From: an uncultured Candidatus Saccharibacteria bacterium
Lineage (GTDB): Bacteria > Patescibacteriota > Minisyncoccia > Phycocordibacterales > PALSA-1337
Assembly: GCA_964459225.1 (NCBI GenBank)
Contig: CAYWKB010000001.1
Location: 32,356-96,355, forward strand
Reading direction: 5' to 3'
DNA: 64,000 nt
The position numbers and the translations under genes were made by a program. This document shows, one piece after another, positions 9,790-59,628 of this stretch; positions within the stretch are counted from its first letter, which is position 1, and each line of letters begins with the position of its first letter. Below the pieces are notes generated by a model. The model had not been told where the DNA came from and did no database searches. It saw only the letters and a list, made by a program, of their open reading frames with translations.

Positions 9790-11082
9790 TTAGAGATTTC
9801 TAATCGCTCTTACAAATACTTCCCCTCTATGTTTGCGTGAATTATAAATACCCACAGCATCAAATGCTGGACTAAATAATACAATGTCACCTTTGCTTGA
9901 ATTATTGAAAGCAATTGATACAGCATCATCTATATCAAATGCATGGAGTACATTGACTTCATTTATTTTGTCTATAACACTTCTATATCCAATGGTTCCA
10001 CTTCCTGGTAATACAATTATATTTTTTACATAATTTGATAATTCCTTTAATAAAAAATTATAGTCATGACCTGTATATGAACCACCTATTATAATAGAAA
10101 TATTTTTATTATTTGATAATGATTTTAATGCCAAAATAGTTGAATGTGGTGATATGGATGAAGAATCATTATAAAACTCTATACTATTAACCTTCTTTAT
10201 GGCTTCAATACGTCCTTTAAGACCCAAAAAGCCCTGTATAACCTCTTTTGCTATGTCTTTTGATACCTTGAACAATTCACTGGTTTGTAGGGCTAAAGAG
10301 GCATTTTCCCTGTCATAAGCAACCTTTCTATGTGAAATCCAATCACTTGGAATACTGCTACTTCTTGTCCTTAATATCTTTGCCCTAATTTCAATTTCAT
10401 CCTTAACTAAATCGATAACATTATCAGAGGCAATAATAAAGTTATTGTATGTTTGGAATTCTAATATTTTTGAAGAGATCTTTGATGTTAGTACTGCAAC
10501 ATGAGGACTAATACGAATTTCATGATAATAAGGTATGAGATTTTCTTGAATGCGAACAATAACAACATCGCCTTTTTTAATCTTTTTTAAGTGTGTGAGT
10601 ACGCCATTTGATGTATCTGAGTCAATAACAAAAAGCCCCTGATCCTCATAATCAACAAAAGACTTTTTAAGCATTTGATGTATCAAATGAGCAACTGTGC
10701 TTTTACCGTACACACCAAGAACACCGATGATTGTAACTGTTGGAACTAATTTAAAAAATAATATCTCAGCATATTCAATCTGTATACCTGCCTCAATTGC
10801 CTTTTTAAGGAAATGAGATTTTTTAGAGATATCAGAGGAAAGTATTATGAGATCCGAATCAAGTAAATCATTTTGATTTATCTTCCCATAACTAACTTTA
10901 TTCAAATTTAAATCAATTAAATCTGAGGCGATATCTTCTAACTTTGATTCACTTCTCATATCATACACAGAAACAATTGATTTATTTTTTGCAAGAAACT
11001 TTATATCAGCCAACATCTCTCCATGTGGACCTAGTCCTATTACTGATATTTTTTTATCTTTAAAAAAGTCTTTGTATATCAC
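9790..11082 (-). CDS. murD: UDP-N-acetylmuramoylalanine--D-glutamate ligase MurD (Mur ligase)
   Basis: KKISVIGLGPHG N-terminus, IIGVLGVYGKST P-loop, 430 aa. Confidence 0.65.
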   Translation of the reverse strand: MIYKDFFKDKKISVIGLGPHGEMLADIKFLAKNKSIVSVYDMRSESKLEDIASDLIDLNLNKVSYGKINQNDLLDSDLIILSSDISKKSHFLKKAIEAGIQIEYAEILFFKLVPTVTIIGVLGVYGKSTVAHLIHQMLKKSFVDYEDQGLFVIDSDTSNGVLTHLKKIKKGDVVIVRIQENLIPYYHEIRISPHVAVLTSKISSKILEFQTYNNFIIASDNVIDLVKDEIEIRAKILRTRSSSIPSDWISHRKVAYDRENASLALQTSELFKVSKDIAKEVIQGFLGLKGRIEAIKKVNSIEFYNDSSSISPHSTILALKSLSNNKNISIIIGGSYTGHDYNFLLKELSNYVKNIIVLPGSGTIGYRSVIDKINEVNVLHAFDIDDAVSIAFNNSSKGDIVLFSPAFDAVGIYNSRKHRGEVFVRAIRNL

Positions 11083-11419: not shown

Positions 11420-11998
11420 TTAATAATTAGCTTTTATATTTTCGTAATTATTTCTAGTAATTATTATGTGATCTAGTATTCTAATACCCAATATCTTCCC
11501 TGCTTTAATCAATTGTTCTGTTATCTCAATGTCTTGTGTGCTTGGAGTACTAACATCTGATGGATGATTATGAGCAAGTATAATAGCAACCGCCCCATAC
11601 TCAATCGCTGGACGGAATACTTCTCGAGGATGTGCTATGTTTGAGTTTATTGTTCCAACTGAAATCAATTCATCATGAACAATACGATTATGGCTATTTA
11701 GATATAGACCGCGGAAATGCTCCTTTGAGAGATTTTTCATATCACTTAAATATCCGAAAGCGTCTTCAGCTGTACGAATAGTTACAAAACCTCTAGAATT
11801 ATGTGAGTAGTATCTCCTGCCTAACTCACCACATGCTACAATTTGGCATGATTTAACGATTGGAATATTTGACTCTTCTGATAATCTTTTTGGATTTCTT
11901 TCTTCTATTATACTTTTTTCACCATAATCTCTAACAAGTCTATTGACCATTTCGAGCACACCCTCTGATTTTGTGCCTGAATTTAAAACAATTGCCAT
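11420..11998 (-). CDS. radC: RadC-family JAB-domain protein (UPF0758)
   Basis: LAHNHPSDVSTPSTQD JAMM-like motif, 192 aa. Confidence 0.8.
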   Translation of the reverse strand: MAIVLNSGTKSEGVLEMVNRLVRDYGEKSIIEERNPKRLSEESNIPIVKSCQIVACGELGRRYYSHNSRGFVTIRTAEDAFGYLSDMKNLSKEHFRGLYLNSHNRIVHDELISVGTINSNIAHPREVFRPAIEYGAVAIILAHNHPSDVSTPSTQDIEITEQLIKAGKILGIRILDHIIITRNNYENIKANY

Positions 11999-12318: not shown

Positions 12319-13734
12319 CTATATTGTCTCAATCAACATCATATTTGTCTCCAAAACCTTACCGAAAGGCATTCCTGATGCGATCACCACCTTATCACCC
12401 TTTGCTGCTAATTTTGATTTAATAGCTGTCTTTCTAACTACTGACATTATCTGTATGATACTTGAAAACTTTGGTACCAACACTGCATAACATCCAAATG
12501 TTAATGCTAGTTTATTTGCTGTTGTTTGATTTGAAGTTAATGCAATTATTCTTTCTGCTGGCTTATATCTTGCTATCATTCTTGCTGTTCTTCCTGATTC
12601 TGTTAATGCGACTATAAACTTTGCCTCAACACCATGTGATGCTTGTACTGCAGATTGTGATGTTATATCTGTTATACCGTGTAGATCTTGGTATTCTGCT
12701 ATTACGTCTTTTGTAAATACTTCTTTTTCAACTCTCAATGCTACACGTGTCATCATTGAAACTGCTTCAACCGGGAAATCTCCGAGTGTTGTTTCTTCTG
12801 AAAGCATTATTGCGTCAGTTCCGTCAATTATTGCATTTGCAATGTCTGAAACTTCTGCACGAGTAGGTACTGGACTCTTTATCATTGATTCCAACATTTG
12901 TGTTGCTGTTATAACAGGCTTTCCTACTGCATTACATTTTTGTATAAGCATTTTTTGTACCAATGGAACTTCTTCTGCTGGTATTTCAATTGCCAAGTCT
13001 CCACGTGCAACCATAAGACCATCAGAAAGTTTGATAATTTCATCGATATTTTCCAATGCTTCTGGTGTTTCAATCTTTGCGATAATTCCAGCCTTACTCT
13101 TTACCTTATCAAGTATTCCTCTTAGCTCTGTAATATCTGAAGGTCTACGTACAAATGAAAGAGCAATAAAATCGACTTTATTTTTAATTCCAAATTCTAG
13201 ATCCGCACGATCTTTTTCTGTGATTGAACTTATAGATAGATATGCACCTGGAAGATTTACTCCTCTTTTATTTTTGATTTCACCACCGACAATAACCTTA
13301 GTAATAACATTATTACCCTTTATATCTGTAATTTGTAATTTCTTTTTACCATCATGCAAAAGAACATAACCACCAACTTTTACTTCCTTTGGTAATAATG
13401 GATAGTTTACATATACTCTTTCCTCATTTCCCATTACCTTATCTGTTGTTAGGGTAAATGTCTGTCCCTCTTTTAAAACAATTAATCCTTTTTCAAATTC
13501 ACCAATTCTAATCTTTGGTCCTCCAAGATCTTGAAGTATGGCTATATTTTTACCTGTCTTTTCAACTACCTTTCTTAGATTTTCGACTCTGTTTTGATGT
13601 TCAGCAAAGTCTCCATGAGAAAAGTTAAGTCTCATTACATTCATTCCTGCATCAACAAGATCCTTTAACTTTTCTACCGTTTCAGTTGCTGGACCTATAG
13701 TACAAACTATCTTTGTTTTCTTGCCGTTATTCAT
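12319..13734 (-). CDS. pyk: pyruvate kinase
   Basis: KIVCTIGPA...MNVMRLNFSHG, 471 aa. Confidence 0.9.
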   Translation of the reverse strand: MNNGKKTKIVCTIGPATETVEKLKDLVDAGMNVMRLNFSHGDFAEHQNRVENLRKVVEKTGKNIAILQDLGGPKIRIGEFEKGLIVLKEGQTFTLTTDKVMGNEERVYVNYPLLPKEVKVGGYVLLHDGKKKLQITDIKGNNVITKVIVGGEIKNKRGVNLPGAYLSISSITEKDRADLEFGIKNKVDFIALSFVRRPSDITELRGILDKVKSKAGIIAKIETPEALENIDEIIKLSDGLMVARGDLAIEIPAEEVPLVQKMLIQKCNAVGKPVITATQMLESMIKSPVPTRAEVSDIANAIIDGTDAIMLSEETTLGDFPVEAVSMMTRVALRVEKEVFTKDVIAEYQDLHGITDITSQSAVQASHGVEAKFIVALTESGRTARMIARYKPAERIIALTSNQTTANKLALTFGCYAVLVPKFSSIIQIMSVVRKTAIKSKLAAKGDKVVIASGMPFGKVLETNMMLIETI

Positions 13735-15173: not shown

Positions 15174-15770
15174 TTAATTTCTATCTGGAATTACCCAACC
15201 TAAAAATTTAAAGTTATTTTGATAATTATATCTATCGTTAATATCAATTAAATTTAATTTTGACTTACTCTTACCTTTTGTAAGGTAATAACCATAAGAT
15301 GAATAACCGCCACCCACAAAAGGAAATATAAAATAATCACCTCTTCTGTCGTATGAACTAGAAATGGTAATTTGATCAGGGGAAGTTAATAAATCACTCA
15401 AAGTCATGATTTGAGCCTCTTTTAAAGATATTTCCCTACTTTCATTTTTTTGGGTGTCATGAAAAAAAATATGTTCTGAATATTTTTCGATAGAAACATC
15501 TTTATCATCTTTACCATTTTTATTCACTAATAATTTACCGTCAACAACAGAATATATTTCTTTTGAATAATCATTACAGTTATATGGATAGTGATTGTTA
15601 TTATCCATGCACATTGAATAAATAAAATTATAATTAGTCTTTATAAAAGCTGAAGGAATATAAGTTACACAAACAACTACAACAATTAGTATTATCGGTA
15701 AGGAAAAAGCCAAAAACAATGCGAAATTATCTTTTAAGATTTTTTTCATATTAACGATATTATAACACAA
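15174..15770 (-). CDS. membrane-anchored hypothetical protein
   Basis: 198 aa, N-terminal TM helix. Confidence 0.4.
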   Translation of the reverse strand: MCYNIVNMKKILKDNFALFLAFSLPIILIVVVVCVTYIPSAFIKTNYNFIYSMCMDNNNHYPYNCNDYSKEIYSVVDGKLLVNKNGKDDKDVSIEKYSEHIFFHDTQKNESREISLKEAQIMTLSDLLTSPDQITISSSYDRRGDYFIFPFVGGGYSSYGYYLTKGKSKSKLNLIDINDRYNYQNNFKFLGWVIPDRN

Positions 15771-15825: not shown

Positions 15826-15846
15826 TTGTGCGCGTGCTAGGATTCG
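15826..15846. repeat. 21-bp direct repeat identical to 16703-16723 (3' end of tRNA-Ile): attR-like duplicate
   Basis: ttgtgcgcgtgctaggattcg exact match at both sites, 856 bp apart. Confidence 0.7.
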
Positions 15847-15869
15847 GTCACAAAAATTTTAGTATATAT

Positions 15870-16703
15870 CTATCCTTGAGGTAATTTTAATTCTCCAATA
15901 CCTTCAACCATATCTCTTATCTTATCAGAAAATTGTGGATAGGCAGTTACACTAGCTTCGAATCTAAGATCCAGCGTCTTACCATTACCATCCATAAAAT
16001 ATAGGTCTGTAATATGTTTAAAATCACCTGTGTATGCTGCAATATGATAGATTCGTGTGCTATTTTCCATCTGAATACTGATCATGTCCTTTGTGGCTTT
16101 ATTAAGTATTATCTCACTAATTATCATTTCATTCTTTGGAATATCATTTATCATAGTAAGATAAATATTTTCAGCGTTATTTGATTCGGTGCTTGTACTT
16201 ACATCATATATAATATCTGAAAAATCATCATAGTTTTCCCTTACCTTAGGGGTAAATTTCATACCCTCAGATCCGTATTTACCCATTACCCAATTATTGG
16301 CGAGCCAATTTGGAACAGACCATGCAAACGCACCATGAGCGAAATACCCCACTATATTACTAATATTTTGATCTCTCTTTTCTTCAAATAAATACGAGTA
16401 CTTACCTTGAATATTTGTTGTTGATGCCGTAATACCATCATATGTCGGTGCAACATTTCTAATTCTAAAAAATTTTTGCTGAGAATCAATTACCTCAGAA
16501 AAACTCTCACCAGACTTATGAACTTGTGGGGTCTGTTCAACTATATTTGTTTTTGATATCTGAATTAAATCCGTGGTAGTTGTGGCTATTTCATTAACTA
16601 CACTTTGCTTATTTACAAAAGAAATATAGTGAATAGAACCAATCAACAAAAATACAATAACTACTAGTAGGAAAATCACAGTATAAAGTATTTTATTTTT
16701 CAT
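15870..16703 (-). CDS. secreted/membrane-anchored hypothetical protein (single cargo gene between tRNA-Ile and its 3'-end duplicate)
   Basis: ORF track ORF extended through tRNA; real start MKNKILYTVIFLLVV at 16701-16703 with signal-anchor. Confidence 0.5.
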   Translation of the reverse strand: MKNKILYTVIFLLVVIVFLLIGSIHYISFVNKQSVVNEIATTTTDLIQISKTNIVEQTPQVHKSGESFSEVIDSQQKFFRIRNVAPTYDGITASTTNIQGKYSYLFEEKRDQNISNIVGYFAHGAFAWSVPNWLANNWVMGKYGSEGMKFTPKVRENYDDFSDIIYDVSTSTESNNAENIYLTMINDIPKNEMIISEIILNKATKDMISIQMENSTRIYHIAAYTGDFKHITDLYFMDGNGKTLDLRFEASVTAYPQFSDKIRDMVEGIGELKLPQG

Positions 16704-16705
16704 TG

Positions 16706-16778
16706 TGCGCGTGCTAGGATTCGAACCTAGGACCCCACCAGTATCAGTGGTGTGCTCTACCAACTGAGCTACACGCGC
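16706..16778 (-). tRNA. tRNA-Ile (anticodon GAT)
   Basis: GCGCGTG acceptor, GCTCAGTTGGTAGAGC D-arm, anticodon loop CTGATAC, GGTTCGAATCC T-arm; no encoded CCA. Confidence 0.85.
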
Positions 16779-16846
16779 ATACATTAAATCCCGTATTTAC
16801 CGTCAAAATATATCAAAAATCATTACTAATAGCAATTATAAAGTTT

Positions 16847-16875
16847 AAAGGTCGCGAGTGTAAGTCGCGACCTTT
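16847..16875. terminator. perfect 11-bp-stem hairpin AAAGGTCGCGA-gtgtaag-TCGCGACCTTT with T-rich flanks (bidirectional terminator-like)
   Basis: read directly. Confidence 0.5.
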
Positions 16876-16904
16876 GTTTGTGTTTGTTCATTTGTTTGTT
16901 TTTT

Positions 16905-17129
16905 CTACCAAGGGGTTACGATACTGATAGCAAGACTTGTTATTGGTAATGTCACAAATGCTATAAACATAAGTGCACAGAACACAACCTTTGACGCAGG
17001 CTGTCTGTCAAACCAGTTAATAACTCTCCTCCAAATTGGCTTTCTGGAGAGAAAATTATCACCGCCTAGCAATAGTACCCCTTGTAAAGGAGATAACGAT
17101 GAGCTTTTCATACCTTTAACTTTATACAC
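16905..17129 (-). CDS. small membrane protein, hypothetical
   Basis: 74 aa, C-terminal TM. Confidence 0.35.
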   Translation of the reverse strand: MYKVKGMKSSSLSPLQGVLLLGGDNFLSRKPIWRRVINWFDRQPASKVVFCALMFIAFVTLPITSLAISIVTPW

Positions 17130-17174: not shown

Positions 17175-17206
17175 AAAAAAGCACCCAGCATGGTCAATGC
17201 GGGTGC
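17175..17206 (-). terminator. hairpin GCACCC-N14-GGGTGC followed (minus strand) by TTTTTT
   Basis: read directly, 30 nt after stop of 17234-18316 ORF. Confidence 0.55.
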
Positions 17207-17233
17207 TTGTTATCATCGGAGGATGATGTTTAT

Positions 17234-18316
17234 TTAGTGAACTCCATCATCGGAATGATCGTAGAGGTCAAACTTAATTCTCATTCTACCATCAATTGGT
17301 AACTTACCCTTTTTCGGTAGTAAATACCCTACATGATTATCTCTAGGCAGCATGATTGCTCCAAATCCATGCTGAAATCCTTTACTTACTAGTGAGGGGT
17401 ACTTCGTTTTCCATTTCTCATGCTCATCTTCAGGATGAATACAAAGAGAAAAATTAGACGAACTTCCTCCTCCCTGCATTGAATTAATGTGAAGTGTTGG
17501 GATATCAAATCTCCAAGTGGCTACCCTATGTTGCTGGTCACGAGGAATACATCCAAGAACATCATTTTGTCGTTCCCCGTGAAGTAGCATTCCAAATAAG
17601 TAGCGTCTGACAGCGACAATATTATTCTGATCACTGTTATAAAGCCGTAAAAGGACTTCATCGCGTGCTCCATAAGACAATACTTTTGTTAAACACCCAT
17701 CACCCCTCCACCATTTTGTAGCGTTATAGCTCTGCATGAGACCTTGAAATCTATTTTCGTGGGAAAATCTTGTAGTCTTTTCCCATTCAGACAAGTTTTC
17801 CTCAAGATCAGGCAATATACTATAGAGTTTACTTAACACATCATCAGTGTGTTTAGCATGTCGATTTCGAGCAAACTTCTCCAGATCATCAACAGAGTGT
17901 GTAAGACCCCATATAATCATTGGTAATGTGATATATGGATCAAAGATGACTGCTGTGACTGGTGTAGTCTGATCTAGTGGAAATGATTCACCTTCAATCG
18001 TTTTTCCATATACTAGTGCATTGTACAATTCACTATAAGCATGTTCATGACCATCACGCCTAAGCTTAGCCAACAGACTCAGCATAACCCCAACACTTTT
18101 ACCATGATCGCTCCAGTCGCTTACCACCTTAGATGGTAGTGTGTTCACTCCTAAAAATGAATAGGAAGATTTACGGAAATACCGCCTACAATATTTAAAC
18201 GCATTATTATCGGTAAGTTTTTCGCGAAGCAGTTCCAACTGCTTCTCTCTACTTTTTTTACTAGGTGCAAAGACTCCAGGCAATTGATTCATAAAAAAAT
18301 CCATCTGAAGTGACAT
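17234..18316 (-). CDS. hypothetical protein, compositionally atypical (GC ~40%, Trp/His/Arg-rich)
   Basis: 360-aa ORF without recognisable motifs; GC clearly above genome background; located just downstream of 16S terminator. Confidence 0.45.
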   Translation of the reverse strand: MSLQMDFFMNQLPGVFAPSKKSREKQLELLREKLTDNNAFKYCRRYFRKSSYSFLGVNTLPSKVVSDWSDHGKSVGVMLSLLAKLRRDGHEHAYSELYNALVYGKTIEGESFPLDQTTPVTAVIFDPYITLPMIIWGLTHSVDDLEKFARNRHAKHTDDVLSKLYSILPDLEENLSEWEKTTRFSHENRFQGLMQSYNATKWWRGDGCLTKVLSYGARDEVLLRLYNSDQNNIVAVRRYLFGMLLHGERQNDVLGCIPRDQQHRVATWRFDIPTLHINSMQGGGSSSNFSLCIHPEDEHEKWKTKYPSLVSKGFQHGFGAIMLPRDNHVGYLLPKKGKLPIDGRMRIKFDLYDHSDDGVH

Positions 18317-18669: not shown

Positions 18670-20289
18670 AATTGAAATAATCCACGAGCAGCTTCCGCTA
18701 CCCGTGCCTTGTTACGACTTACTCCCTGTCATTGAGCTTACCTTAGGCCACGACAAGCGTAGACTTCGGGTATTCCCAACTCCCTTGAGTTGACGGGCGG
18801 TGAGTACAAGACTTGAGAACGTATTCACCGCAGTATAGCTGACCTGCGATTACTAGCAATTCCAACTTCATGAGGTCGAGTTGCAGACCTCAATCCGAAC
18901 TGGGGATAGCTTTATAAGGATTTGCTCCATCTTTCGACTTTGCGTCCTGTTGTACTATCCATTGTATCACGTGTGTAGCCCAGGGTATAAGGGACATGCT
19001 GACCTGGCGTCATCCTCACCTTCCTCCCACGACGCAGCAAACAATTTTACAGAGGTTAGGAAAAATTGGTTCACATCACTTGCGTGCGTAGTAACTTTTT
19101 ATATCTCTTACGAGCTATAAAAAGTTCTCCGCACCGGATGTTCACTCAATTTTTCATCATCTCAACAAAATTCCGCACTGTGTCGTGGGCAGTCTCGCCT
19201 GACAAATATAACAGACAACGAGGGTTGCGTTCGTTACCCCACTGAAGGGAACAACTCAAGCCACGAACTGACGACGGCCATGCATCACCTGACTAACTGT
19301 CTTGCGACGCCAAAAGTTTCTTCTTGGCTTCAGCTAGATTAAACCCTGGTAAGGTTCTTCGTTTATCATCGAATTAAACCACATGATCCACTGCTTGTGC
19401 AAGTCCCCGTCTATTCCTTTGAGTTTTAACCTTGCGGTCGTACTACCCAGGCGCTTCTCTTAACGCGTTAGCTACGCCACTCAGAGGGTCGATACTCCGA
19501 ATAGCTAGAGAAGATCGTTTAGGGCGTGGACTACTGGGGTATCTAATCCCATTCGCGACCCACGCTTTCTTGTTTCAGTGTCAGGAGTGCTCTAGTCTGC
19601 TGCCTTCGCTTTTGGTGTTCCCCATAATATCAACGCATTTTACCGCTACACTATGAGTTCCGCAGACCTCTCGCATCCTCTAGTCATACCGTTTCCCTTG
19701 CATGCCCCCGGTTAAGCCGAAGAATTTAACAAGAGACTAATATAACCACCTACACAACCTTTACGCCCAATGATTCCGGATAACGCTTGAGGCACTCGTA
19801 TTACCGCTGCTGCTGGCACGAGTTTAGCAACCTCTTATTCGCCAAGTACTATCAATAAACTTTCTCCCTGGCAAAAGAACTTTACATGCCTAAGCACTTC
19901 ATCGTTCACGCGGCGTCGCTCCGTCAGACTTTCGTCCATTGCGGAAGATTCTCGACTGCGGCCACCCGTAGGTGTATGGACCGTGTCTCAGTTCCATCGG
20001 TGGGGGTCACCCTCTCAGGTCCCCTAGGCGTCATAGCCTTGGTGAGCTTTTACCTCACCAACTAGCTGATACCGAGCAGGCTCATCTTGAAGCGATAAAT
20101 CTTTAGTCTTTCGACACCATCAAGTATTAACTCATCTTTCGATGAGGTATTCCTGACTTCAAGGTTGATACCTACTTATTACTACCTCGTCTGCCACTGA
20201 CTATATATTGCTATACAGCCCGTTTGACTTGCATGCCTTATCCACGCCGCCAGCGTTCATCCTGAGCTAGGATCAAACTCTTAACTAAA
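18670..20289 (-). rRNA. rrs: 16S rRNA (about 1620 nt) with ~140-nt AT-rich expansion in helix 40 (plus coords ~19030-19175) and non-canonical 3' tail lacking CCUCC
   Basis: rc matches AGAGTTTGATCCTAGCTCAG (20262-20281), GTATTACCGCTGCTGCTGGCAC, GGACTACTGGGGTATCTAATCC, ACGGGCGGTGAGTACAAG, CCTTGTTACGACTT; flanking leader/trailer complementarity (18481-18507 vs 20290-20330). Confidence 0.9.
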
Positions 20290-30206: not shown

Positions 30207-30321
30207 CTTTGTACTGGCGACTAGCTACTTTCCCCTTCATATGAGTATCATCGCCGCAACTGCGTTTCACTTCCGTGTTCGGAATGGGAACGGGTGTTTC
30301 CACAGCGCCAAATCACCAGAA
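30207..30321 (-). rRNA. rrf: 5S rRNA
   Basis: rc contains GCGTTTCACTTCCGTGTTCGGAATGGGAACGGGTGTTTCC matching conserved 5S core. Confidence 0.8.
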
Positions 30322-30720
30322 CAAAAAATTCAATCTGTTGATAAAAATTCAGATAAACAAAAGCTTATCGAATTTTAATAAATAAAGGTTTGTGCTTGTT
30401 ATAGACAAGTAATTGTGGTTCTTAAATTTCCTAATAGGATCGACGGATTAGTACTTCTCAGCTTAACATATTACTATGCGTACACCTAAAGCCTATCAAC
30501 GTAATCATCTCTTACGGGTCTCAAACGATTCCTAATCTTGGGGTTGGCTTCCTTCTTAGATGCTTTCAGAAGTTATCCATTCCGAACATAGCTACACTGC
30601 GATGCTCTTGGCAGAACAGCAGTCACACCAGAGGTTCGTTCAATTTGGTCCTCTCGTACTAAAATCAAATCCCCTCAAGAATCAACGCCTGCAGTAGATA
30701 GGAGACCAACCTGTCTCACG

Positions 30721-31276
30721 CTTGTTATCATAGATTACTCTATGCAATGGACTATAGCTTCACCTTCTTACGAAGGTTGTTAACGTTTAGTCTCTACGGG
30801 TGTTTATGAGTTTTGAAGAGAAGGCGAGACACAAGTTCCTGAGCTTTCGCCCCTCGTCCCCTAGGGGACTCTTAGGCGTGATTCCTTCGGATACGCCTAG
30901 CAATACATGTGCCTCACCAAAATTTGAGAACAAAAATTCTCTACAAAACTCACAAACTTCCCTCGGTATTATCCCTTTTTCATGGACTTCCACCGATTTT
31001 AGTTAACTTGATCTTTCTTATATTACTATAAGTGACCGCCGTGTTTGATTGATCTACTTCCTATACTTTTATTTTGTATAAATGTTACTTTATACTTTTC
31101 TTAAACGAAAAACTCGAAGTGATTCAGACTGTTCAATTGTTATAATTGCTTTACAAAATTATATTTCTCAAAATACTCGCATACTTTTCTGCTGAAAAGT
31201 TGCTCTTCTCGGCGCCAAGCGCCTGCGAAAGGTATTTTTCGAAACAAATTTTGCTCCGCTTAGTCATCACAACTAA
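30721..31276 (-). ncRNA. group I-like intron in 23S at E. coli position ~2593 (between ...AGACCGU and CGUGAGACAG), ~556 nt, no convincing homing-endonuclease ORF
   Basis: exon sequences contiguous in E. coli are split here; 5' exon ends in U, insertion ends in G; internal GCGG can pair with exon CCGU (P1 with U.G); known hotspot for group I introns. Confidence 0.55.
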
Positions 31277-31942
31277 ACGGTCTGAACCCAGCTCGCGTAA
31301 CTTTTTAATTGGCGAACAGCCAAACCCTTGGAAGCTTCTCCACCTCCAGGATAAGTTGAGCCGACATCGAGGTGCCGAACTGCGCCGTCGCTATGAACGC
31401 TTAGGCGCAACCAGCCTGTTATCCCTAGAGTAGCTTTTGGTCCGATAATCTTCCCCCGCGTCTAATGCGTAAGGTCGGTTCACTATGTTCTGCTTTCGCA
31501 TCTGTTCGACAAGTACGTCTTACAGTCAAGCCAGCTTATGCCATTACACTATCGGCACGGTTTCCATTCGCGCCTAGCTGACCTTAATAAACTCCTCCGT
31601 TACTTTTTAGGAGGATAGCGCCCCACTAAAACTGCCCGCCAGATTCTGTCTCTTGCCGTTTTTGCCGTCAAGGTTAGAATATATATTTTTTAAGAATGGT
31701 ATTTCACTGTCGGATCCATCTTCCCCGAAAGAAAAACTTCAAATCCTCCCATCTACGCTACGCATAAAAAACATATAGTCAAAATCAAGTTGCAGTAAAG
31801 CTTCTAGGGTCTTTTCGTCTAACTGCAGGTAATCGGCATCTTCACCGATATTGTATTTTCACCGAGCAAGTCTCCGAGACAGTTCTCCAGACATTACACT
31901 ATTCGTGCGCGTCAGAACTTACCTGACAAGGAATTTCGCTCT

Positions 31943-32194
<252 letters not shown>

Positions 32195-32997
32195 CAGGGC
32201 TTACAACAGTCAGCTTGATATAATCGCACCGCCGTTGTTTGACCTTCTGGCATTGGTCAAGTGTCACCCCCTATACATCCTCTTACGAGTTCGCAGGGAG
32301 CTGTGTTTTTGATAAACAGTTGCCAGAGATACTTTAGCTGCGGCCCTTCTTGCGAAGGGCAAGCCTTATTCCGAAGTTACGGCTGATTTTTTGCCGAGTT
32401 CCTTGGAGACCTCTCACTCGTTCGCCTTGGTCTACTCGACCTGAACACCTGTGTCGGTTTGCGGTACGGTTCCTGCATAGATAAGTTTAGAAGATTTTCT
32501 TGGAAGCGCGCTTTATAACATCTAAAAGGGCGAACCCCTCTATTTTCACTCTACTCGGAATTGTCATCAAAGACATTACCCGGATTTTCCTGGGTAAATT
32601 CCCTATAGCATGAACTCAAATCCAATAATGAGCGTCATATACTGCACTCCGTCCCTTCATCACTCTATACAAAAGTCATGGAATATTAACCATGTGTCCA
32701 TCGGGTGCGGTTTTCACCATCCCCTTAGGCCCGACTAACCCTTGGCTGATTTACATAGCCAAGGAAACCTTGTTCTTTCGGCGTGCCGGATTCTCACCGG
32801 CATTGTGGTTACTTGTGCCAACATTCTTACTTCCAAACGCTCCAGCATGGCTCACGCCTTTGCCTTCAACGCAGATTGGAATACTCTCCTACCACTGTAT
32901 ATTATCGAAATAAAATACAATCCTCAGTTTCGGTATCATGTTTAACCCCGATTATCTGCGGCGCAGAATCTCTCGATGAGTGAGCTGTTACGCTTTC

Positions 32998-33029
<32 letters not shown>

Positions 33030-33602
33030 TCATTGTTTGAGAAATTCAACCACCTTAAGCGTACTTAACATGAATTTAGGGACCTTAAATGGAGATCTAG
33101 GCTGTTTCCTTTTTGACGTATGGAGCTTAGCCCCCACCGTCTAACTGCTGAATAATTTAACCTCTGTATTCGGAGTTTGATAGGTCTCGTGATCTTTCGA
33201 CCTGTCGAGACCTTCCAGTGCTCTACCCCAGAGGGGTACATTCAACGCTAGCCCAAAAGCTATTTCGGAGAGAACCAGCTATTACCAGATTCGATTAGCT
33301 TATCACTCCTTACCTCAAGTCATCGCAGAGAATTGCACAACTCTAGCGTTCGGACCTCCCTTTCCACTTCTGAAAAGTTCATCCTGCTCAAGGCAAGCTC
33401 ATCTGGCTTCGGGTCTGATGCATACTACGAACGCGCTATTCACACTCGGTTTCCCTGTGGCTCCAGTCTCTCGACCTTAGCCTGCAGCATGCTTCAACTC
33501 GTTGGCTCATTCTTCAATAGGCACGCAGTCGAGGTATTGCTACCTCTTCTACTCCTTGTAAATATATGGTTTCAGGTCTATTTCATCGCCCTTACCGGGC
33601 TG

Positions 33603-33642
<40 letters not shown>

Positions 33643-34545
33643 TTCTAGAATATTTAGCCTTACCGGTTAGTTCCGGCAGATTCCCCCGAGCTATTCGTGT
33701 CTCGAGGTACTCAAGAATAGGAACAAAAAAGATCTTTTGATTTCGACTACAGGGCTATCACCTTCTGGGGCTAAGCTTTCCAGCTTATTCTTCTATCAAA
33801 AAATTTTGTAACTTTTCTGTTATAAATAACACGTTCCTACCTTACTACCCCCAACCTTTATCGCACGATAGGACATGAGAGACATTGCTGTCCCCCAAAA
33901 TTCCTATAGCACGATAAAGGTTGAGTTTGGGCTCTTCCGCTTTCGCTCGCCGCTACTTACGAAATTCTTATTTAGTCTCTATTCCTCCAGGTACTGAAAT
34001 GTTTTACTTCCCTGGGTGCGCATTCAAATATCAAGTACTTGAATTCTGACTCGAGGTCAGAGGGTTTCCCCATTCGGAGTCTTCCGGATCAAAGGTTGCT
34101 AGGCACCTCCCCGGAAAATATCGTCGCCATGCCACGTCCTTCATCGCTTCTTAGAAGCCTAGGCATCCACCATATACTCTTAAATTTCCCATTAGGAAAT
34201 CTAAAAACCACAATTATTTGTCTACAACTTACAACATACTATTTAATGTATATATTCGAAAAAACCCTAACATATATACATCTTATAGTATTACCTTTAT
34301 TTATCACTCAGTAACTTCCTGATTGTTGAAATTACTGAGTTATTTAATTGTCAATGTTTCTGTCATTATGTTATTGAATTTTTCATTTCAATTTTACAAA
34401 AAAATCGCTTTATTAAGCGACCTTTCCTAACACCGTTTTAAAGCGTTATTATGGCCGTTTAAATAGTGAAGTTTTTAACATATTTCTGTGTAAGGGATAG
34501 TGTATACGAAGGTGAAATTAAAGTCAATAGCGATACATAAAATAG

Positions 34546-44508: not shown

Positions 44509-46743
44509 ATGTTATTATTATTTAATAAATATATGGCAAATAAAAAGAAAATTATTGATAGTGGTATTCCAGTAAAAAAGGAAACCAAACAAACTGTCTT
44601 TGCGGTATTGTTTTTTGTTCTAGCATTGCTATCAATATTATCTGCCATAGATGCTGCCGGTAAAGTTGGTACTTATGCATACAAACACCTAGCAATACTA
44701 TTTGGAATGGGTTATTTCCTTATACCTATTTCTTTTATAATGACCGCTATCGCTTTTATTATGGGTGTTAAAGCGGAATTCAAAATATCAAAAATAATAA
44801 GTATATTTCTGTTTTTCTTTTCTGGTTTAGGACTTATGGGACTACTTGTTGCAAATGAGGGCGGAATTGTTGGTAAATGGATACTATATCCTTTTATTAA
44901 TTTATTTGATGTTTATGCAACCGCAGCGATACTTATAGCATGTATATGTATTTCAGTGATTATAACTTTTGAAATGCATATAACGGCTGAGAGTTTAAAA
45001 TTTTGGAAATGGTTCCATAGGGATGAGGATGAATTAGAGTCAGTGGATACTGTTGATATTGAAGATGATGAATTTTCTGATATCAAATCAGAAAACCGCA
45101 TCAACAAAGCAGTGCAGGATGTAGAAAATAATATAAAGAAAAATGAAAAAGCAGAAAAGATAGCAAAAGATGAGGTTCAAGATATTGTAATGAGTAAATC
45201 ATATATCAATAAAGAGTTTACTCCTCCACCACTTTCATTACTTGAAAAAGACAAGGGTAAACCAGAAACTGGAGATATAAAAGCTAATGCAAATATAATA
45301 AAAAGAACTCTACAAAATTTCGGTATCAGTGTTGAAATGGATGAAATATCTATTGGACCCTCAGTTACAAGATATGCATTAAAGCCCGCTGAAGGCGTTA
45401 AACTCTCAAAAATAGTCGGACTAAATAATGATCTTGCCTTGGCACTTGCCGCACATCCGATAAGAATAGAGGCCCCCATACCAGGCAAATCACTAGTCGG
45501 TATCGAAATTCCAAATACCACAAAGACCACAGTGGGACTTGCAACACTTTTGGGTTCTGATGAATATCAAGGTTCAGATAAACCATTACTTATTTCACTG
45601 GGTAAAGGTATTTCAGGTAAATCATTTTTTTCAAATCTTGCAAAAGCACCACATATGCTTATAGCGGGTACAACTGGTTCTGGTAAATCAGTAACAATTC
45701 ACGCGATTATAACCTCTTTGCTATTTAGAAATTCTCCTGAAAATCTAAAATTCATAATGATTGATCCTAAAAGAGTTGAATTAACTTTGTACAATAAAAT
45801 CCCTCATCTCTTAACACCAGTTATAACTGATGCAAAAAAGGCAATTTTGGCACTAAAGTGGGCGGCAAAGGAAATGAGTAGAAGATACGATATATTAGAA
45901 AAAAACACAGTAAGGGATATTGATTCATATCACAAAACTGTTTTGGCTCCAGCATTAAAAAACAAAAAGTCAGGCGATGATGAAACCAAATTACCTGAAT
46001 CGATGCCTTATATCGTAATCGTATTGGATGAATTGGCCGATATTATGCAGACATATCCAAGAGAGCTTGAATCAGCAATAGTAAGACTTGCACAAATGAG
46101 CCGTGCTGTTGGTATACATTTAATACTATCAACACAAAGACCTAGTGTTAATGTTATTACAGGGTTAATCAAAGCAAATGTACCAACAAGAGTTGCGCTT
46201 CAAGTTTCTGCACAGATAGACTCAAGAACTATTTTGGATACTGGAGGAGCTGAAAAGCTATTGGGTGCAGGAGATATGCTCTATCTTGGCTCTGAAATGT
46301 CAAAACCACAGAGATTACAATCAGCATATATCACTGAGCGTGAAGTTAAAGAGGTAGTTAAATATCTTGCTGACACATATAAAGATGAAATTATGGGTGA
46401 AATAAATCTAGCAGTACCTGAGGCTGGCAAAGATGCCATATTTGAGGCAAATTTTGATTCTGATAGCGAAGATTTAGGAGATGAAGATGAATTACTAGGT
46501 CAGGCAAAACAAATTGTAGTTGAAAGCGGCAAGGCATCTACTTCATGGTTACAAAGGAAATTAGGCATAGGATATTCAAGGGCTGCCAAATTAATTGATT
46601 TACTTGAGAGTAAAGGTATAGTTGGTCCTGCCAATGGTTCAAAACCAAGAGAAGTTTATGGAAATGATTCTCCATCTCAATCAACTGAAGATATATCAAG
46701 TACAGGCGAAGACACAATACAATCAAATCGTGATAGTATCTAA
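44509..46743 (+). CDS. ftsK: DNA translocase FtsK/SpoIIIE (N-terminal TM, motor domain, C-terminal gamma domain); start possibly MANKKK at 44536
   Basis: GTTGSGKSV Walker A, DELAD, gamma-domain WLQRKLGIGYSRAAKLIDLLE. Confidence 0.85.
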   Translation: MLLLFNKYMANKKKIIDSGIPVKKETKQTVFAVLFFVLALLSILSAIDAAGKVGTYAYKHLAILFGMGYFLIPISFIMTAIAFIMGVKAEFKISKIISIFLFFFSGLGLMGLLVANEGGIVGKWILYPFINLFDVYATAAILIACICISVIITFEMHITAESLKFWKWFHRDEDELESVDTVDIEDDEFSDIKSENRINKAVQDVENNIKKNEKAEKIAKDEVQDIVMSKSYINKEFTPPPLSLLEKDKGKPETGDIKANANIIKRTLQNFGISVEMDEISIGPSVTRYALKPAEGVKLSKIVGLNNDLALALAAHPIRIEAPIPGKSLVGIEIPNTTKTTVGLATLLGSDEYQGSDKPLLISLGKGISGKSFFSNLAKAPHMLIAGTTGSGKSVTIHAIITSLLFRNSPENLKFIMIDPKRVELTLYNKIPHLLTPVITDAKKAILALKWAAKEMSRRYDILEKNTVRDIDSYHKTVLAPALKNKKSGDDETKLPESMPYIVIVLDELADIMQTYPRELESAIVRLAQMSRAVGIHLILSTQRPSVNVITGLIKANVPTRVALQVSAQIDSRTILDTGGAEKLLGAGDMLYLGSEMSKPQRLQSAYITEREVKEVVKYLADTYKDEIMGEINLAVPEAGKDAIFEANFDSDSEDLGDEDELLGQAKQIVVESGKASTSWLQRKLGIGYSRAAKLIDLLESKGIVGPANGSKPREVYGNDSPSQSTEDISSTGEDTIQSNRDSI

Positions 46744-47157: not shown

Positions 47158-48276
47158 ATGGCAAAGAAAACAAAAGACGTAAAGGAAGAATTGAATGAAG
47201 TTGAAGAAAAATTTGAAGAATTAGATAGTGAAGGTGAAGAAATAAAAAATAGCAAAAACAAAAAGGAACAGAAAAAAATAGATCATGCAGGTGGTATAAA
47301 CTCTACTCTTGATGCAATACGTTCAAAGTTCGGCGATGAGTCTATAATGAAGCTTGGTGATAAGCCAAAGGTAAATGTAAATGCAATTCCTACAGGCTCA
47401 ATAGGACTTGATGCAGCACTTGGTATAGGAGGAATGCCTAGAGGAAGAATAGTCGAAATATTCGGCCCAGAATCATCTGGAAAGACAACATTATCATTAC
47501 ATGTAATCGCTGAAGCACAAAAGCTTGGTGGTATATGTGCTTTTATTGATGCTGAGCATGCTATGGATCCAGATTATGCAAAGAGACTTGGTGTTAAAAC
47601 AGAAGAATTACTAATATCACAACCAGATACAGGAGAACAAGCCCTTGGTATTGTTGAAAGTCTTGTGAATTCAGGAAAAATGGACGTGATAGTGATAGAC
47701 TCTGTCGCAGCCCTTACTCCAAAAGATGAAATCGAGGGAGATATGGGAGCATTTCATGTTGGAAAGCAGGCAAGACTTATGTCACAAGCTCTAAGGAAAC
47801 TCACAAGTATAGTAGCAAAGTCAAAGACAGTTGTGATATTCATCAATCAAATAAGAATGCAAATAGGAGTTATGTTCGGTAATCCAGAGACAACACCAGG
47901 AGGCAAAGCATTAAAATTTTATACTTCAGTAAGATTAGATATACGTAGAATAGCACAAATCAAAAAAGGAGAAGAAATAATGGGAGGTAGAGTGCGTGTG
48001 AAAGTAGTTAAAAACAAAGTCGCTGCCCCATTTAGGCAAACTGAATTTGATTTAATGTACAATGAAGGAATATCACAGGAAGGTGAAATCATAGCTCTAG
48101 GTGAAAAGATGGGTATAATAACAAAATCAGGTACATCATATTCATATAAAAAGGAAAACGATGAGGTTAAACTAGGTAGAGGATATGATGCGACAAGACA
48201 GTTTTTAAAGGAAAATACACCCATCAAAAACGAAATCCTAAAGAAAATAAGAGTAGAACTTGCACAAGCCAAATAA
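47158..48276 (+). CDS. recA: recombinase RecA with ~45-aa acidic/lysine-rich N-terminal extension
   Basis: [10 protein letters not shown] Walker A, full RecA core; extension [28 protein letters not shown]. Confidence 0.9.
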
Positions 48277-52999: not shown

Positions 53000-53473
53000 T
53001 TATGAACAGACCACAACTCCGCTACCTAAGTTTGCATTTCTTGATTCTGATTTACCTGAACTATCAACACACCAGAAACCTCCACTTGGAAGATTAGCTG
53101 ACACTGCCCATGCTGTTGCAGTTGCCTGACAACTTAGCAATGTTCCATTTGGCCATGCTCCTGCTGTACCAGTTACGGCAATCAAACCTGAAGCATTATC
53201 GATAAACATTCCACCAGTACATGGTAGAGCGGGTAAAGCCATAACTGAAGCAGCGTAACCATTATTATTCGCATTAGCAAACAGCTCAGCACCTGTTCTT
53301 ACAGTTGCAAGTTGCTCTTTAACTTTTGTATCACTAGCCTTGTTTCTCGCAGTTGAAAGTGAAGCCAAAACTACTGATGACAAGATACCGATGATTGCTA
53401 TAACAACTAGCAACTCGATCAATGTAAAACCTCTTTGTAAATATGTTTTATTCATAACGTATAAATTAACCAA
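53000..53473 (-). CDS. pilA: type IV major pilin (PilA-like); likely start MNKTYLQRGFTLIEL (7th codon of track ORF)
   Basis: GFTLIELLVVIAIIGIL class III signal + two C-terminal Cys. Confidence 0.85.
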   Translation of the reverse strand: MVNLYVMNKTYLQRGFTLIELLVVIAIIGILSSVVLASLSTARNKASDTKVKEQLATVRTGAELFANANNNGYAASVMALPALPCTGGMFIDNASGLIAVTGTAGAWPNGTLLSCQATATAWAVSANLPSGGFWCVDSSGKSESRNANLGSGVVVCS

Positions 53474-53536
53474 AAACTTATTAATAATTAAACTTATAGC
53501 TATAAGTATAGCAAATATAGAAATGTCTGTTAAACG

Positions 53537-53548
53537 TTATGTGGATAA
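53537..53548. promoter_or_regulatory. TTATGTGGATAA 12-mer (DnaA-box containing), copy 3, ~65-85 nt upstream of pilin start
   Basis: exact match to copies at 12250 and 43497. Confidence 0.5.
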
Positions 53549-53559
53549 ACTGTGCTTAT

Positions 53560-54768
53560 TTATTGTGCACTTGCAACGTTGTATATAGGTATAAGCACAG
53601 ATGCAAGAAGCACTGCTACTCCAGCACCGAGCATTACTATCATGGCAGGCTCTATAAGATCAACTAGAGCATCCACAGCAGTAGTTACCTCTCTTGAGTA
53701 AAACCTAGCTAATGTTTTTAATATATTTCCCAACTCTCCTGACTCTTCACCCACTTTCATCATTTGAATCATAATACCTGGTATTTCACCATTACCTGAA
53801 AGTGCCTCAGATACTGGCTTTCCTGCCTTTACAGCCTCAACTGATTCGCTTAATATCTTATTGTATATACTGTTGTTTATAACTGATGATGTAAGCTCTA
53901 ATGCTCTTATCATAGGGATTCCTGCAGCAAGCATTGTGTTCATATTGTCTGACAATCTTGACCAATATAATTTCCTAAATAGATTACCAATATATGGTAC
54001 TGCTAATTTAAATTTATCGAACATCAATGCACCTACTGGAGTTTTGATGTATTTATAAAGGAAAAATCCTCCAATAATAGCAACTCCAAGCACTATAAAA
54101 CCATAAGACACAAAGAAATTACTAATACCCAAAACTATCTGTGTGTATATCGGTATCTCTTGTCCTGAATCAACCAAGATAGAGCTTATCTTTGGTATAA
54201 CCATAGTGAACATAAGTATCATAACTGTAATAAATGTAAAGATAACGAATGCCGGATATATAAGCGCACTTTTTGCTTTTGAAACTAGCTCATATGTTCG
54301 GTCAAGATAATCTGCAAGATATGTAAATGTCTCATTTAACTTTCCAGATTCTTCACCTGCCTTTACCATACTAACGTAAAATTCTGAAAAGACTTTTGGA
54401 TGCTTCCCTAATGCTGCAGATATTTGACTACCTGATTGCAGGTCATCTGAAATTGTTATTAGTTTTGCACCTAGTACTTTGTTTTCACTTTCACTTGCCA
54501 AAAGTCTAAATATTCTAAGAGCTGAAACTTGTGCTTCAAAGAGTGTTGCTAATTGTCTTGAAAGTATCACAACATCCTTGTTTGATACTCTATCGAGCCA
54601 ATTGATATTCATATTCAGAAAGCCCTTTGCTTTGTCTGCTTCAACAATTGATGAAACAACTAGCCCCCTGCGTTGAAGTGATGCTATGGCAATATCTACA
54701 TTTGCCGCATCTATTGACCCTGACTTTATTGAACCATCTTGTTCTATTGTTTTATAATTAAAAAGCAT
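53560..54768 (-). CDS. pilC: type IV pilus assembly platform protein PilC (GspF family)
   Basis: 402 aa, duplicated GspF domain pattern. Confidence 0.85.
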   Translation of the reverse strand: MLFNYKTIEQDGSIKSGSIDAANVDIAIASLQRRGLVVSSIVEADKAKGFLNMNINWLDRVSNKDVVILSRQLATLFEAQVSALRIFRLLASESENKVLGAKLITISDDLQSGSQISAALGKHPKVFSEFYVSMVKAGEESGKLNETFTYLADYLDRTYELVSKAKSALIYPAFVIFTFITVMILMFTMVIPKISSILVDSGQEIPIYTQIVLGISNFFVSYGFIVLGVAIIGGFFLYKYIKTPVGALMFDKFKLAVPYIGNLFRKLYWSRLSDNMNTMLAAGIPMIRALELTSSVINNSIYNKILSESVEAVKAGKPVSEALSGNGEIPGIMIQMMKVGEESGELGNILKTLARFYSREVTTAVDALVDLIEPAMIVMLGAGVAVLLASVLIPIYNVASAQ

Positions 54769-54783
54769 AAATAAATTATATCA

Positions 54784-55842
54784 TTAAATCATTCTCTCCA
54801 ATGTCTTTGGATTAAATGAATTCAAATAAGCATTTTCAACAGATATTTCCCCTCTTCTTACAAGCTCTGCCAATGATCTGTTCATATCTATCATTCCTTC
54901 GCCTGAACTTGTTTCTATAACTGTATTTATTTCATGTATTCTTTTTTCTCTTATTAGATTTGCAACCGCACTATTACTTATGAGTAATTCATATGCAGGA
55001 ATTAGTCCACCTGAAATACGAGGGATTAATCTTTGTGAAAATATACCAGTCAAACTTCCTGCAAGTTGTACACGTATTTGATCTTGTTGACCACTTGGGA
55101 ATGAGTCAATAATACGATTGATTGTCTGTGCTGCGTTGTTTGTATGCAAAGTTGAAAAAACCAAATGCCCAGTTTCAGCGGCCGTAACCGCAGTTGCCAT
55201 AGTGTTGTTATCGCGCATTTCCCCCACCAAGCACACATCAATATCCTGTCTAAACATTGAGACTAATGCTCCGTTAAAATCAGGGGTGTCGCTTCTCACC
55301 TCTCTTTGATCGATTATAGATTTCTTTGATTCAAATAAATATTCTATTGGATCTTCAATGGTTAAAATATGTTCGCTTCTTGTTTGATTTATTAATTCAA
55401 TAAGTGATGCAAGAGTTGTAGTCTTTCCCTGTCCTATTGGACCCACAACCATAAAAAATCCCTGCTGTTTCCTAGTAAAAGTTTCAAGTATTGGAGGCAG
55501 ATTTAATTCAGCCAATGTCCTTATTGCTTTTGGTATAAGTCTAAGAGCGATAGAGATCACTCCTTGATGATAAAATGCATTTCCACGGAAACGTGTATTT
55601 GTTAGACTGTATGCAAAATCCACCTCTCTATTGTCCATTAATAGCTTTTGATTTTCTTCATTTAAAAATACTTTTAAAAAACCCTTCATATCCTCAGAGG
55701 TTAGCTCTGCTTTTTTAACTAGTGGTATGAGGCCACCAGATACACGCACAAGTGGATGTCTACCATCAGATAAGTGCAAATCCGATGCTCCCTCTTTTAC
55801 TAGCATGTCCACAAGTTCTTCAATTTGTTTTTTGTATTCCAT
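54784..55842 (-). CDS. pilT: twitching-motility retraction ATPase PilT
   Basis: 352 aa, GPIGQGKTTT Walker A. Confidence 0.8.
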   Translation of the reverse strand: MEYKKQIEELVDMLVKEGASDLHLSDGRHPLVRVSGGLIPLVKKAELTSEDMKGFLKVFLNEENQKLLMDNREVDFAYSLTNTRFRGNAFYHQGVISIALRLIPKAIRTLAELNLPPILETFTRKQQGFFMVVGPIGQGKTTTLASLIELINQTRSEHILTIEDPIEYLFESKKSIIDQREVRSDTPDFNGALVSMFRQDIDVCLVGEMRDNNTMATAVTAAETGHLVFSTLHTNNAAQTINRIIDSFPSGQQDQIRVQLAGSLTGIFSQRLIPRISGGLIPAYELLISNSAVANLIREKRIHEINTVIETSSGEGMIDMNRSLAELVRRGEISVENAYLNSFNPKTLERMI

Positions 55843-55859
55843 ATTTTTAAATGATTATT

Positions 55860-56258: not shown

Positions 56259-56276
56259 AATGTATTGATTATATCA

Positions 56277-57992: not shown

Positions 57993-58003
57993 GTTTTTAT
58001 TTA

Positions 58004-58363: not shown

Positions 58364-58367
58364 AATA

Positions 58368-58961: not shown

Positions 58962-58962
58962 A

Positions 58963-59610: not shown

Positions 59611-59628
59611 TGCAATAATTATAGTTGA

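Follow-up and report, generated by a model that had tools for sequence, protein, structure and literature searches.

In a 64,000-nucleotide (nt) stretch of contig CAYWKB010000001.1 from an uncultured Candidatus Saccharibacteria bacterium (the window, whose own numbering is used for all positions), the 3' end of a tRNA-Ile(GAT) gene recurs exactly on the far side of a single protein-coding gene that abuts the tRNA and that we call fam. The most fitting reading of this repeat is a recombination junction, not a recent foreign island. On balance, we favour the interpretation that its distal copy is the attR-type junction of a recombinase-less single-gene cassette, located at a recurrent tRNA-end attachment (att) site at which fam has long been fixed. 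With a GC content of 33%, the window is a genome segment of the candidate phyla radiation (CPR)/Patescibacteria type; few mobile elements have been described for these bacteria, and gene flux among them is poorly understood.

An exact copy of the tRNA-Ile 3' end lies beyond fam

The 21-mer TTGTGCGCGTGCTAGGATTCG is present in exactly two copies in the window, and no further copy was found even when three mismatches were allowed. Since 100 dinucleotide shuffles returned no match at all, none is expected by chance, which rules out a fortuitous match as well as a repeat dispersed over many unrelated places, the outcome that a first-pass annotation of this DNA had set against its own proposal of an integrase-type duplication. 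Exact sequence matching confirmed what that annotation described in every particular, including that the last 18 nt of the tRNA and 3 flanking nt recur downstream: in tRNA sense, the 21-mer (CGAATCCTAGCACGCGCACAA) runs from C56 in the T-loop to the discriminator A73 and continues into a trailing CAA. The tRNA, which reads GCGCAC from its acceptor 3' strand through the discriminator to the base after it, scores 74 bits, and the block of identity begins within its T-loop and extends 3 nt past A73, so that the tRNA is restored.

The two copies are separated by 856 bp (877 bp from start to start), and this interval holds only one open reading frame (ORF) of 277 codons plus a stop and another 23 nt, with neither pseudogene debris nor an integrase. 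The annotation was likewise correct in having the gene start abut the tRNA, as the A of the fam ATG is the final base of the tRNA-proximal copy. At the distal copy there is neither a hairpin nor a tRNA-like fold, and a hidden tRNA, tRNA-like element or other structured RNA is ruled out there by ARAGORN, by the lack of an Rfam match at E <= 10 and by a fold z-score of -0.83. The features of the locus are listed in Table 1.

The locus is 100% identical in two metagenome contigs from other samples. In addition, a search with the 191-amino-acid (aa) protein encoded next to the distal repeat retrieved a 1-kb contig (L030; comparison loci carry L numbers throughout) that begins 8 nt before the distal repeat and encodes a 97% identical version of this protein. 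This contig retains every base of the distal 21-mer and differs at 5 of the 17 nt that follow it. Of the other comparison loci, L023, L003 and L021 belong to the metagenome-assembled genomes GCA_964952985.1, GCA_054403235.1 and GCA_034680565.1, respectively.

Table 1. Positions of the features discussed, in window numbering
Feature	Position	Strand	Basis
191-aa membrane protein gene, conserved flank on far side of repeat (B' side)	15174..15749	minus	homologs
Extended -10 TGTTATAAT, 9 nt before ATG of next gene	15759..15767	minus	sequence
Distal 21-nt repeat, attR-like; core GCGCACAA at 15826-15833	15826..15846	minus	sequence
23-nt spacer ATATATACTAAAATTTTTGTGAC, from fam stop codon to distal repeat	15847..15869	minus	sequence
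fam gene, 277 aa + stop	15870..16703 (read 16703->15870)	minus	ORF
tRNA-proximal 21-nt repeat, attL-like; core GCGCACAA at 16703-16710	16703..16723	minus	sequence
tRNA-Ile(GAT), without encoded CCA	16706..16778 (start 16705/16706)	minus	ARAGORN; Rfam RF00005, 74.1 bits; sequence
Promoter-like site CTTACA-18-TATAAT, ~57 nt upstream of tRNA 5' end	16835..16864	minus	consensus scan only
16S	18670-20288	minus	Rfam/ARAGORN scans
23S-5S	30212-34196	minus	Rfam/ARAGORN scans

Occupied and empty states of the tRNA-Ile core in two relatives

Two of the comparison loci, L023 and L025, differ by an insertion at this very site. Positions 547-703 of L025 align with 562-717 of L023, and positions 697-857 of L025 with 2836-3005 of L023. 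The two alignments overlap on L025 697-703 (GCGCACA), which places the 2119 bp of extra DNA in L023 (718-2835) exactly at the tRNA-Ile core. Two units in tandem, 1183 and 942 bp long, make up the insert; they share a 167-nt left end (94% identical, with a terminator) and a 158-nt right end (89%), the latter finishing in GGTTCGAACTTCGT-N8-GCGCAC. Each unit contains one ORF, different from that of the other unit, and no recombinase gene; no Pfam family of any kind was matched by either ORF. The units carry their own terminator and promoter, and their tandem arrangement is compatible with accretion. L025 is a clean empty site for these sister cassettes at the same core. We regard this pair as decisive for the class of mechanism, integrase-less single-ORF cassettes at the tRNA-Ile core.

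Both loci also contain a perfect palindrome of 24-27 bp (L025 694-749, L023 2836-2885) that starts in the tRNA-Ile acceptor 3' strand (GCGCACAA) and includes ATGAAAAAAGAC, a sequence resembling a truncated fam start. A partial copy of the 5' part of tRNA-Ile lies approximately 75 nt upstream of the tRNA in L023 and L025.

Arm and core elements accompany fam in relatives

The fam ATG lies between -1 and +2 nt from a tRNA 3' end in the context of four tRNA identities, Ile (window, L012, L013), Lys (L021, L022, L024), Tyr (L004) and Val (L009). The Ile, Lys and Tyr tRNAs share the terminal sequence GCGCAC, which is GCCCAC in tRNA-Val, and neither end occurs in any of the eight other tRNA types in the loci. 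In L012 and L013, tRNA-Ile is followed by the abutting fam ATG, by a tRNA-Ile-3'-like element 3-35 nt beyond the fam stop codon and then by the next gene with its own promoter. A conserved tRNA-Ile-3'-like arm with the core GCGCAC(AA) is present just 3' of the fam stop codon in these two loci and in L021. The element of L012, TAATTTCGTTCTAATATCGTCCCACAAC|GCGCACAA, comprises a T-loop-like TTC(G/T)AAT, a 5-nt insertion and 8 nt before the tRNA-end core. In L021, fam stands behind tRNA-Lys and the downstream arm is still of the Ile type, indicating that the arm travelled with fam.

The arm also occurs on the other side of the gene. In L007 and L008 it abuts the fam ATG behind unrelated genes (methyltransferase and AsnB; an Ig-domain protein), and its sequence, ATATCGTCCCACA(A/G)(C/T)G(C/T)GCAC, is identical at 20-21 of 23 positions among L012, L007 and L008, in which the C-terminal domains of fam are 58-60% identical. 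A decayed tRNA-Ile end precedes fam in L020, where it matches at 13 of 19 positions, differs by transitions at all six others and ends 1 nt before the ATG. In a neighbour-joining tree of the fam domain, constructed without branch support values, Ile-, Lys- and Tyr-hosted copies are interleaved.

Scanning the window and 193 kb of loci with a sequence model of the arm revealed no additional copy. The arm that precedes fam in L008 (4747-4783) has undergone C-to-T changes, from AACGCGCAC to AATGTGCAC, giving rise to a CACAAT box 7 nt ahead of the ATG; the box could be a promoter derived from an att arm that had become separated from the tRNA. Short repeated GAATCCT units (GCGAATCCTTCCC, CCGAATCCTGGCG, GAGAATCCTAACCC), which resemble the T-loop/T-stem of tRNA-Ile, are found upstream of fam at L003 2979-3021 and L023 2995-3040. 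A 12-nt tRNA-end match at L013 5558-5569 lies inside a MurD-like coding sequence and was therefore attributed to chance.

A cassette model for the tRNA-Ile site

We propose that site-specific recombination at the 3' end of tRNA-Ile(GAT) would leave the distal 21-mer as the far junction. The 877-bp unit of fam and 23 nt would then be a single-gene cassette that has neither recombinase nor promoter and can be compared with a cis-mobilizable element (CIME), with the spacer as its cassette-side arm. The tRNA end GCGCAC(AA) would be a recurrent attachment site in this CPR/Patescibacteria lineage, and the right-hand arm of the cassettes would mimic the T-loop/acceptor region of tRNA-Ile and end in the same core. 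New cassettes would insert beside the tRNA and displace older units downstream, through a recombinase supplied in trans. That the two copies are perfectly identical might reflect either a recent event, of excision and re-integration or of conversion, or selection on the site, and the unit may still be mobile today. Under this model, the empty junction would read tRNA-21mer-AGGATAATG, that is, tRNA...CGAATCCTAGCACGCGCACAA|AGGATAATGTATAT, and the circle junction GTGAC-21mer-TGAAAAAT, that is, ...AAAATTTTTGTGAC|CGAATCCTAGCACGCGCACAA|TGAAAAATAAAATA. Beyond the distal repeat, the 191-aa gene has its own leaderless-type promoter (Table 1) and so lies outside the fam unit; in L012, too, the distal element is followed by TGTTATAAT. 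Homologs of this gene number 365 in Patescibacteria.

Candidates for functions supplied in trans are encoded in the window itself, which contains genes for an FtsK with a gamma domain (44509-46743), for RecA (47158-48276) and for a type IV pilus cluster (pilin, PilB/PilT-like ATPases, PilC and PilM; 53000-60771). It is plausible that these provide trans-acting recombination and DNA-uptake functions. Since the gamma domain of FtsK is encoded, a Xer/dif system is probably present somewhere in the genome.

Several observations weigh against the cassette model. The integrase search that the first-pass annotation had advised for the whole genome gave a negative answer within the window, as no recombinase domain was found in any window ORF of at least 150 aa. 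Three ORFs (9790-11082, 11420-11998 and 12319-13734) were not scanned directly; by position and length they match the Mur-ligase, RadC and pyruvate-kinase genes of the identical or syntenic contigs L001 and L003. The related loci examined likewise yielded no recombinase, and no viral or phage attP carrying the site was found. Moreover, fam shows no sign of recent movement, given its synteny and near-native composition. In L003, L007, L013 and L020, tRNA-Ile is followed in conserved order by fam, variable membrane genes and the genes for pyruvate kinase, RadC, a 105-aa protein and MurD; identity in these loci is 51-67% for fam and 53-70% for its neighbours, so that they diverge in step. In the window, the GC content at third codon positions (GC3) is 0.24 for fam and 0.18-0.21 for the neighbours. 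The search for empty sites, also suggested by the annotation, succeeded for the sister cassettes of L023 and failed for fam, as a direct succession of tRNA-Ile and the 191-aa gene was found in none of the relatives.

The comparison with relatives carries its own reservations. All comparison loci were fetched through fam, which makes the association of arm and fam partly a sampling effect, and shuffle tests taken alone lend the decayed fragments modest support (280/2000 for L020, 63/2000 for L007). The distal arm of the window consists of GTGAC and 13 tRNA-identical nt, is not of the ATATCGTCCCACA type and was not detected by the sequence model of the relatives' arm, so that its equivalence with their arms rests on position and core only. 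The end of the core lies 44 nt after the fam stop codon in the window versus 34 nt in L012. The attL/attR signature named by the first-pass annotation thus has in its favour the T-loop-to-3'-end block, the arm and core in relatives and the L023/L025 pair, and lacks a recombinase and an empty site for fam. It is from this pattern that we infer a recombinase-mediated origin of the repeat.

Further attempts to trace a recombinase or donor gave no lead. A phage- or plasmid-like donor of the att sequence was not found: a 19-mer matched no viral contig; the arm pattern, tried as a donor trace, gave one match in unrelated AT-rich sequence, which is about the chance level; the L023 arm had no match in the viral search; and blastn against a phage database returned tRNA matches only. 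No support emerged for the 360-aa ORF upstream of the tRNA as the recombinase; it has no Pfam match and only a self-match among 5.8 billion proteins. For the tandem units of L023, no autonomous partner of the integrative and conjugative element (ICE) or integrative and mobilizable element (IME) type was found, and no relaxase or conjugation gene was seen. Our literature search found no paper on such a system in Saccharibacteria or CPR bacteria.

Alternative explanations for the repeat

The rival that survives best, which we still consider unlikely, is a local duplication that involved no site-specific recombination. In one version, the tRNA 3' end and fam would have been duplicated in tandem by a slipped or illegitimate event, after which the extra copy of the gene was deleted; in the other, a short conversion tract would have passed from the tRNA end onto an older, diverged fragment. 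Both would leave a functionless 21-nt repeat around a vertically inherited gene. The native composition of fam as a conserved resident, the failure to find a recombinase, the RecA encoded in the window and the rearrangement-prone character of the region in relatives (palindromes, partial 5'-tRNA copies and insertion sequence debris) would all agree with such an event. It requires two precise steps, however, without microhomology at the deletion endpoints, and 21 nt is short for RecA-mediated conversion. It also leaves unexplained why an arm and core are conserved at the same position in L012, L013 and L021, why the arm stands beside unrelated cargo in L007 and L008, and why the insertion in L023 relative to L025 is precise to the core.

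We think it improbable that the unit is the remnant of a larger tRNA-integrated island or prophage with its own integrase, the highly decayed island that the first-pass annotation had offered as an alternative. CIMEs are thought to originate in this way (PMC5704250), and in relatives tRNA-Ile and fam are indeed found separated by larger inserts, of 2.8 kb in L007 and, including an rve_3 fragment, of 1.3 kb in L025. However, only 23 non-coding nt and no pseudogene debris accompany fam between the repeats, and in each of four tRNA contexts the core runs straight into the start of the gene, a pattern that random decay would not produce. In addition, fam is a long-standing resident, older than the divergence of relatives at ~50% identity, and the cassettes of L023 are single-ORF units with intact conserved ends.

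We also give little credence to the distal copy being a functional RNA or DNA signal (for 3'-end processing, as a decoy, as a protein-binding site or as the operator of the downstream gene) that is selected for identity with the tRNA end. The unchanged 21-mer of L030 is suggestive in this respect, the arm in relatives is better conserved than coding sequence and the changed arm of L008 has acquired a promoter-like box. Yet zero changes in 21 nt at ~10% divergence are expected about one time in ten, the distal copy folds neither stably nor like a tRNA, the side of fam on which the element stands (upstream or downstream) varies among genomes, as do the genes beside it, and its spacing to the next promoter is inconsistent (9 nt in L012 versus ~60 nt in the window).

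fam encodes a predicted envelope protein that is a long-term resident of the site

The fam protein comprises an N-terminal membrane anchor, a variable, low-confidence Ser/Thr-rich linker and, according to the alignment, a conserved C-terminal domain of ~175 aa. It matched no Pfam family, and its 36 homologs all come from Patescibacteria-like metagenome bins. An AlphaFold model of the C-terminal domain has a predicted local distance difference test (pLDDT) score of ~90-97, and Foldseek returned PsbP/DcrB/LpqN matches for it (E 2e-6 to 1e-3); the predicted structure is a PsbP/Mog1-type fold, which is common to the bacterial envelope proteins DcrB, LpqN, Apa and MTC28. Because of its membrane anchor and this modelled fold, we read fam as an extracytoplasmic envelope protein and not a mobility gene.

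The gene is present at this locus in relatives down to ~50% identity, and in the closest of them, L020, it adjoins a 63% identical homolog of the 191-aa gene. Judged by its synteny, its divergence in step with its neighbours and its composition, fam is an old, largely fixed resident of the tRNA-Ile site; it is not cargo, as the first-pass annotation had called it, if this is taken to mean a recent foreign insert.

fam is probably expressed by processing of a tRNA co-transcript

There is no promoter or Shine-Dalgarno (SD) sequence between the tRNA and fam. The only promoter-like site precedes the tRNA (Table 1), and this is the likely promoter of a tRNA-Ile-fam co-transcript. The 3' end of the 16S rRNA reads ...GGATTATTTCA instead of ...GGATCACCTCCTTA (18670-18700, minus strand) and does not contain the CCUCC anti-SD; anti-SD loss has been reported for a subgroup of Parcubacteria (PMC9297842). 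SD sequences are absent at 41 of the 42 ORF starts in the window, and about half of the starts have a TAnnnT box 5-12 nt before the ATG. A box of the TAnnnT type is likewise found 4-8 nt upstream of fam copies that are not fused to a tRNA. From these features, leaderless mRNAs appear to be the norm in this genome. Since the ATG is fused to the tRNA end, 1 nt after the end called by ARAGORN, and the anti-SD is lacking, we infer that cleavage at the tRNA 3' end of the co-transcript probably yields a near-leaderless fam mRNA. Under the proposed mechanism, fam would be transcribed from the tRNA promoter, and tRNA 3' cleavage would free an mRNA that starts 0-3 nt before the AUG.

Genes other than fam also start -1 to +5 nt from tRNA 3' ends (L016 2734-2810, L019 594-670, L010 719-800 and L016 778-860). 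One ORF, short-chain-dehydrogenase-like by reading of its N-terminal sequence, follows tRNA-Gly(TCC), and another follows tRNA-Pro(TGG); in L010 and L018, the dehydrogenase-like gene is missing and fam comes after this tRNA-Gly. As unrelated ORFs are fused to the ends of tRNA-Gly and tRNA-Pro, the fusion of gene starts to tRNAs appears to be a general habit of these genomes.

Relation to known systems

The closest precedent is provided by the ssrA-specific genomic islands (ssrA-GIs) of Dehalococcoides (McMurdie et al. 2011, PMC3146451). As in the system described here, each unit is bounded by a direct repeat of ~20 bp derived from the end (3') of a tRNA-like gene, insertion takes place in the T-loop, a conserved motif unlike the target stands just upstream of each repeat, and units are arranged in tandem downstream of the target gene, some without an integration module. 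In contrast, ssrA-GIs measure from kilobases to tens of kilobases and most have a serine-recombinase module next to attL, whereas the units described here are one-ORF units of 0.9-1.2 kb with no recombinase in any locus examined. Their target is also different, being tRNA-Ile, with related cores in tRNA-Lys and tRNA-Tyr, so that several tRNAs have one common core, and the first ORF can fuse to the tRNA end.

CIMEs, which are decayed ICEs or IMEs mobilised by an incoming ICE (PMC5704250), are similarly bounded by attL and attR at a target gene's 3' end, carry no genes for integration or transfer and undergo tandem accretion. The window locus has kept perfect 21-nt attL/attR-like copies and carries no integration or transfer genes. 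Unlike in CIMEs, no ICE, IME, relaxase or conjugation gene was seen at these loci, and the units have the look of purpose-built single genes, not of decay products. Neither an integrase inside the element nor foreign composition or patchy phylogeny of the insert, as in other integrative elements, was found at this locus. Our verdict is that the fam unit represents a variant of tRNA-targeted, CIME-like elements.

Integron cassettes, too, are promoterless single ORFs with a 3' recombination site that form arrays at one site and depend on an outside promoter, here the predicted promoter of the tRNA. The differences are that no IntI is encoded beside the site (the gene upstream of the tRNA is an ORFan without a domain, and no integrase domain was found in the window), that the site is a tRNA 3' end and not attI, that the 3' element forms no attC-type hairpin, and that the L023 cassettes carry their own terminator and promoter. 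More tentatively, an integron-like cassette system may operate in these CPR bacteria, in which the tRNA 3' end with its core GCGCAC(AA) would be both attachment site and expression platform. A trans-acting recombinase would capture recombinase-less single-gene cassettes, and the tRNA promoter and 3' processing would give a leaderless mRNA of the first cassette where SD pairing has been lost.

In Prochlorococcus islands, partial tRNA 3' ends recur in hypervariable regions next to tRNAs, often without an integrase; these islands differ in being large and multi-gene. To our knowledge, no fusion of a gene start to the tRNA has been reported for islands of this type. A start codon directly after a tRNA is familiar from mitochondrial tRNA punctuation, an experimentally proven, polycistronic organellar system. 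There, as would be the case here, tRNA end-processing gives leaderless mRNAs without SD/anti-SD pairing; unlike mitochondria, the present case concerns a bacterium, with processing deduced from sequence.

If the cassette model is true, a tRNA-end site that gathers recombinase-less single-gene units of ~1 kb would be a compact exchange route for cell-envelope genes in episymbiont genomes of ~0.5 Mb. If the repeat is only a fixed old junction, it would be an ordinary att scar with unusually small content. Start codons fused to tRNA ends without an anti-SD also offer a directly testable case of processing-defined leaderless bacterial mRNAs.

Other features of the window

The rRNA genes are unlinked, with 10 kb of protein genes between the 23S-5S pair and the 16S gene. 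The 23S match spans 3769 nt (30428-34196) versus 2925 nt for the model, pointing to one or more insertions of ~840 nt in all, possibly introns. Between 16S and tRNA-Ile lie ORFs of 360 aa (17234-18316) and 74 aa (16905-17129), both on the minus strand, which have neither a Pfam match nor a homolog anywhere and a GC3 of 0.31-0.36 versus ~0.2. Hairpins at 16846-16876 and ~17178-17210 flank the segment 16905-18316, which has the appearance of a strain-specific insertion 5' of the tRNA. Finally, a class-II tRNA at 62488-62577 (minus strand) has a long variable arm, an encoded CCA and the anticodon ACT; ARAGORN calls it tRNA-Ser(ACT), an anticodon that is unusual for AGY serine codons.

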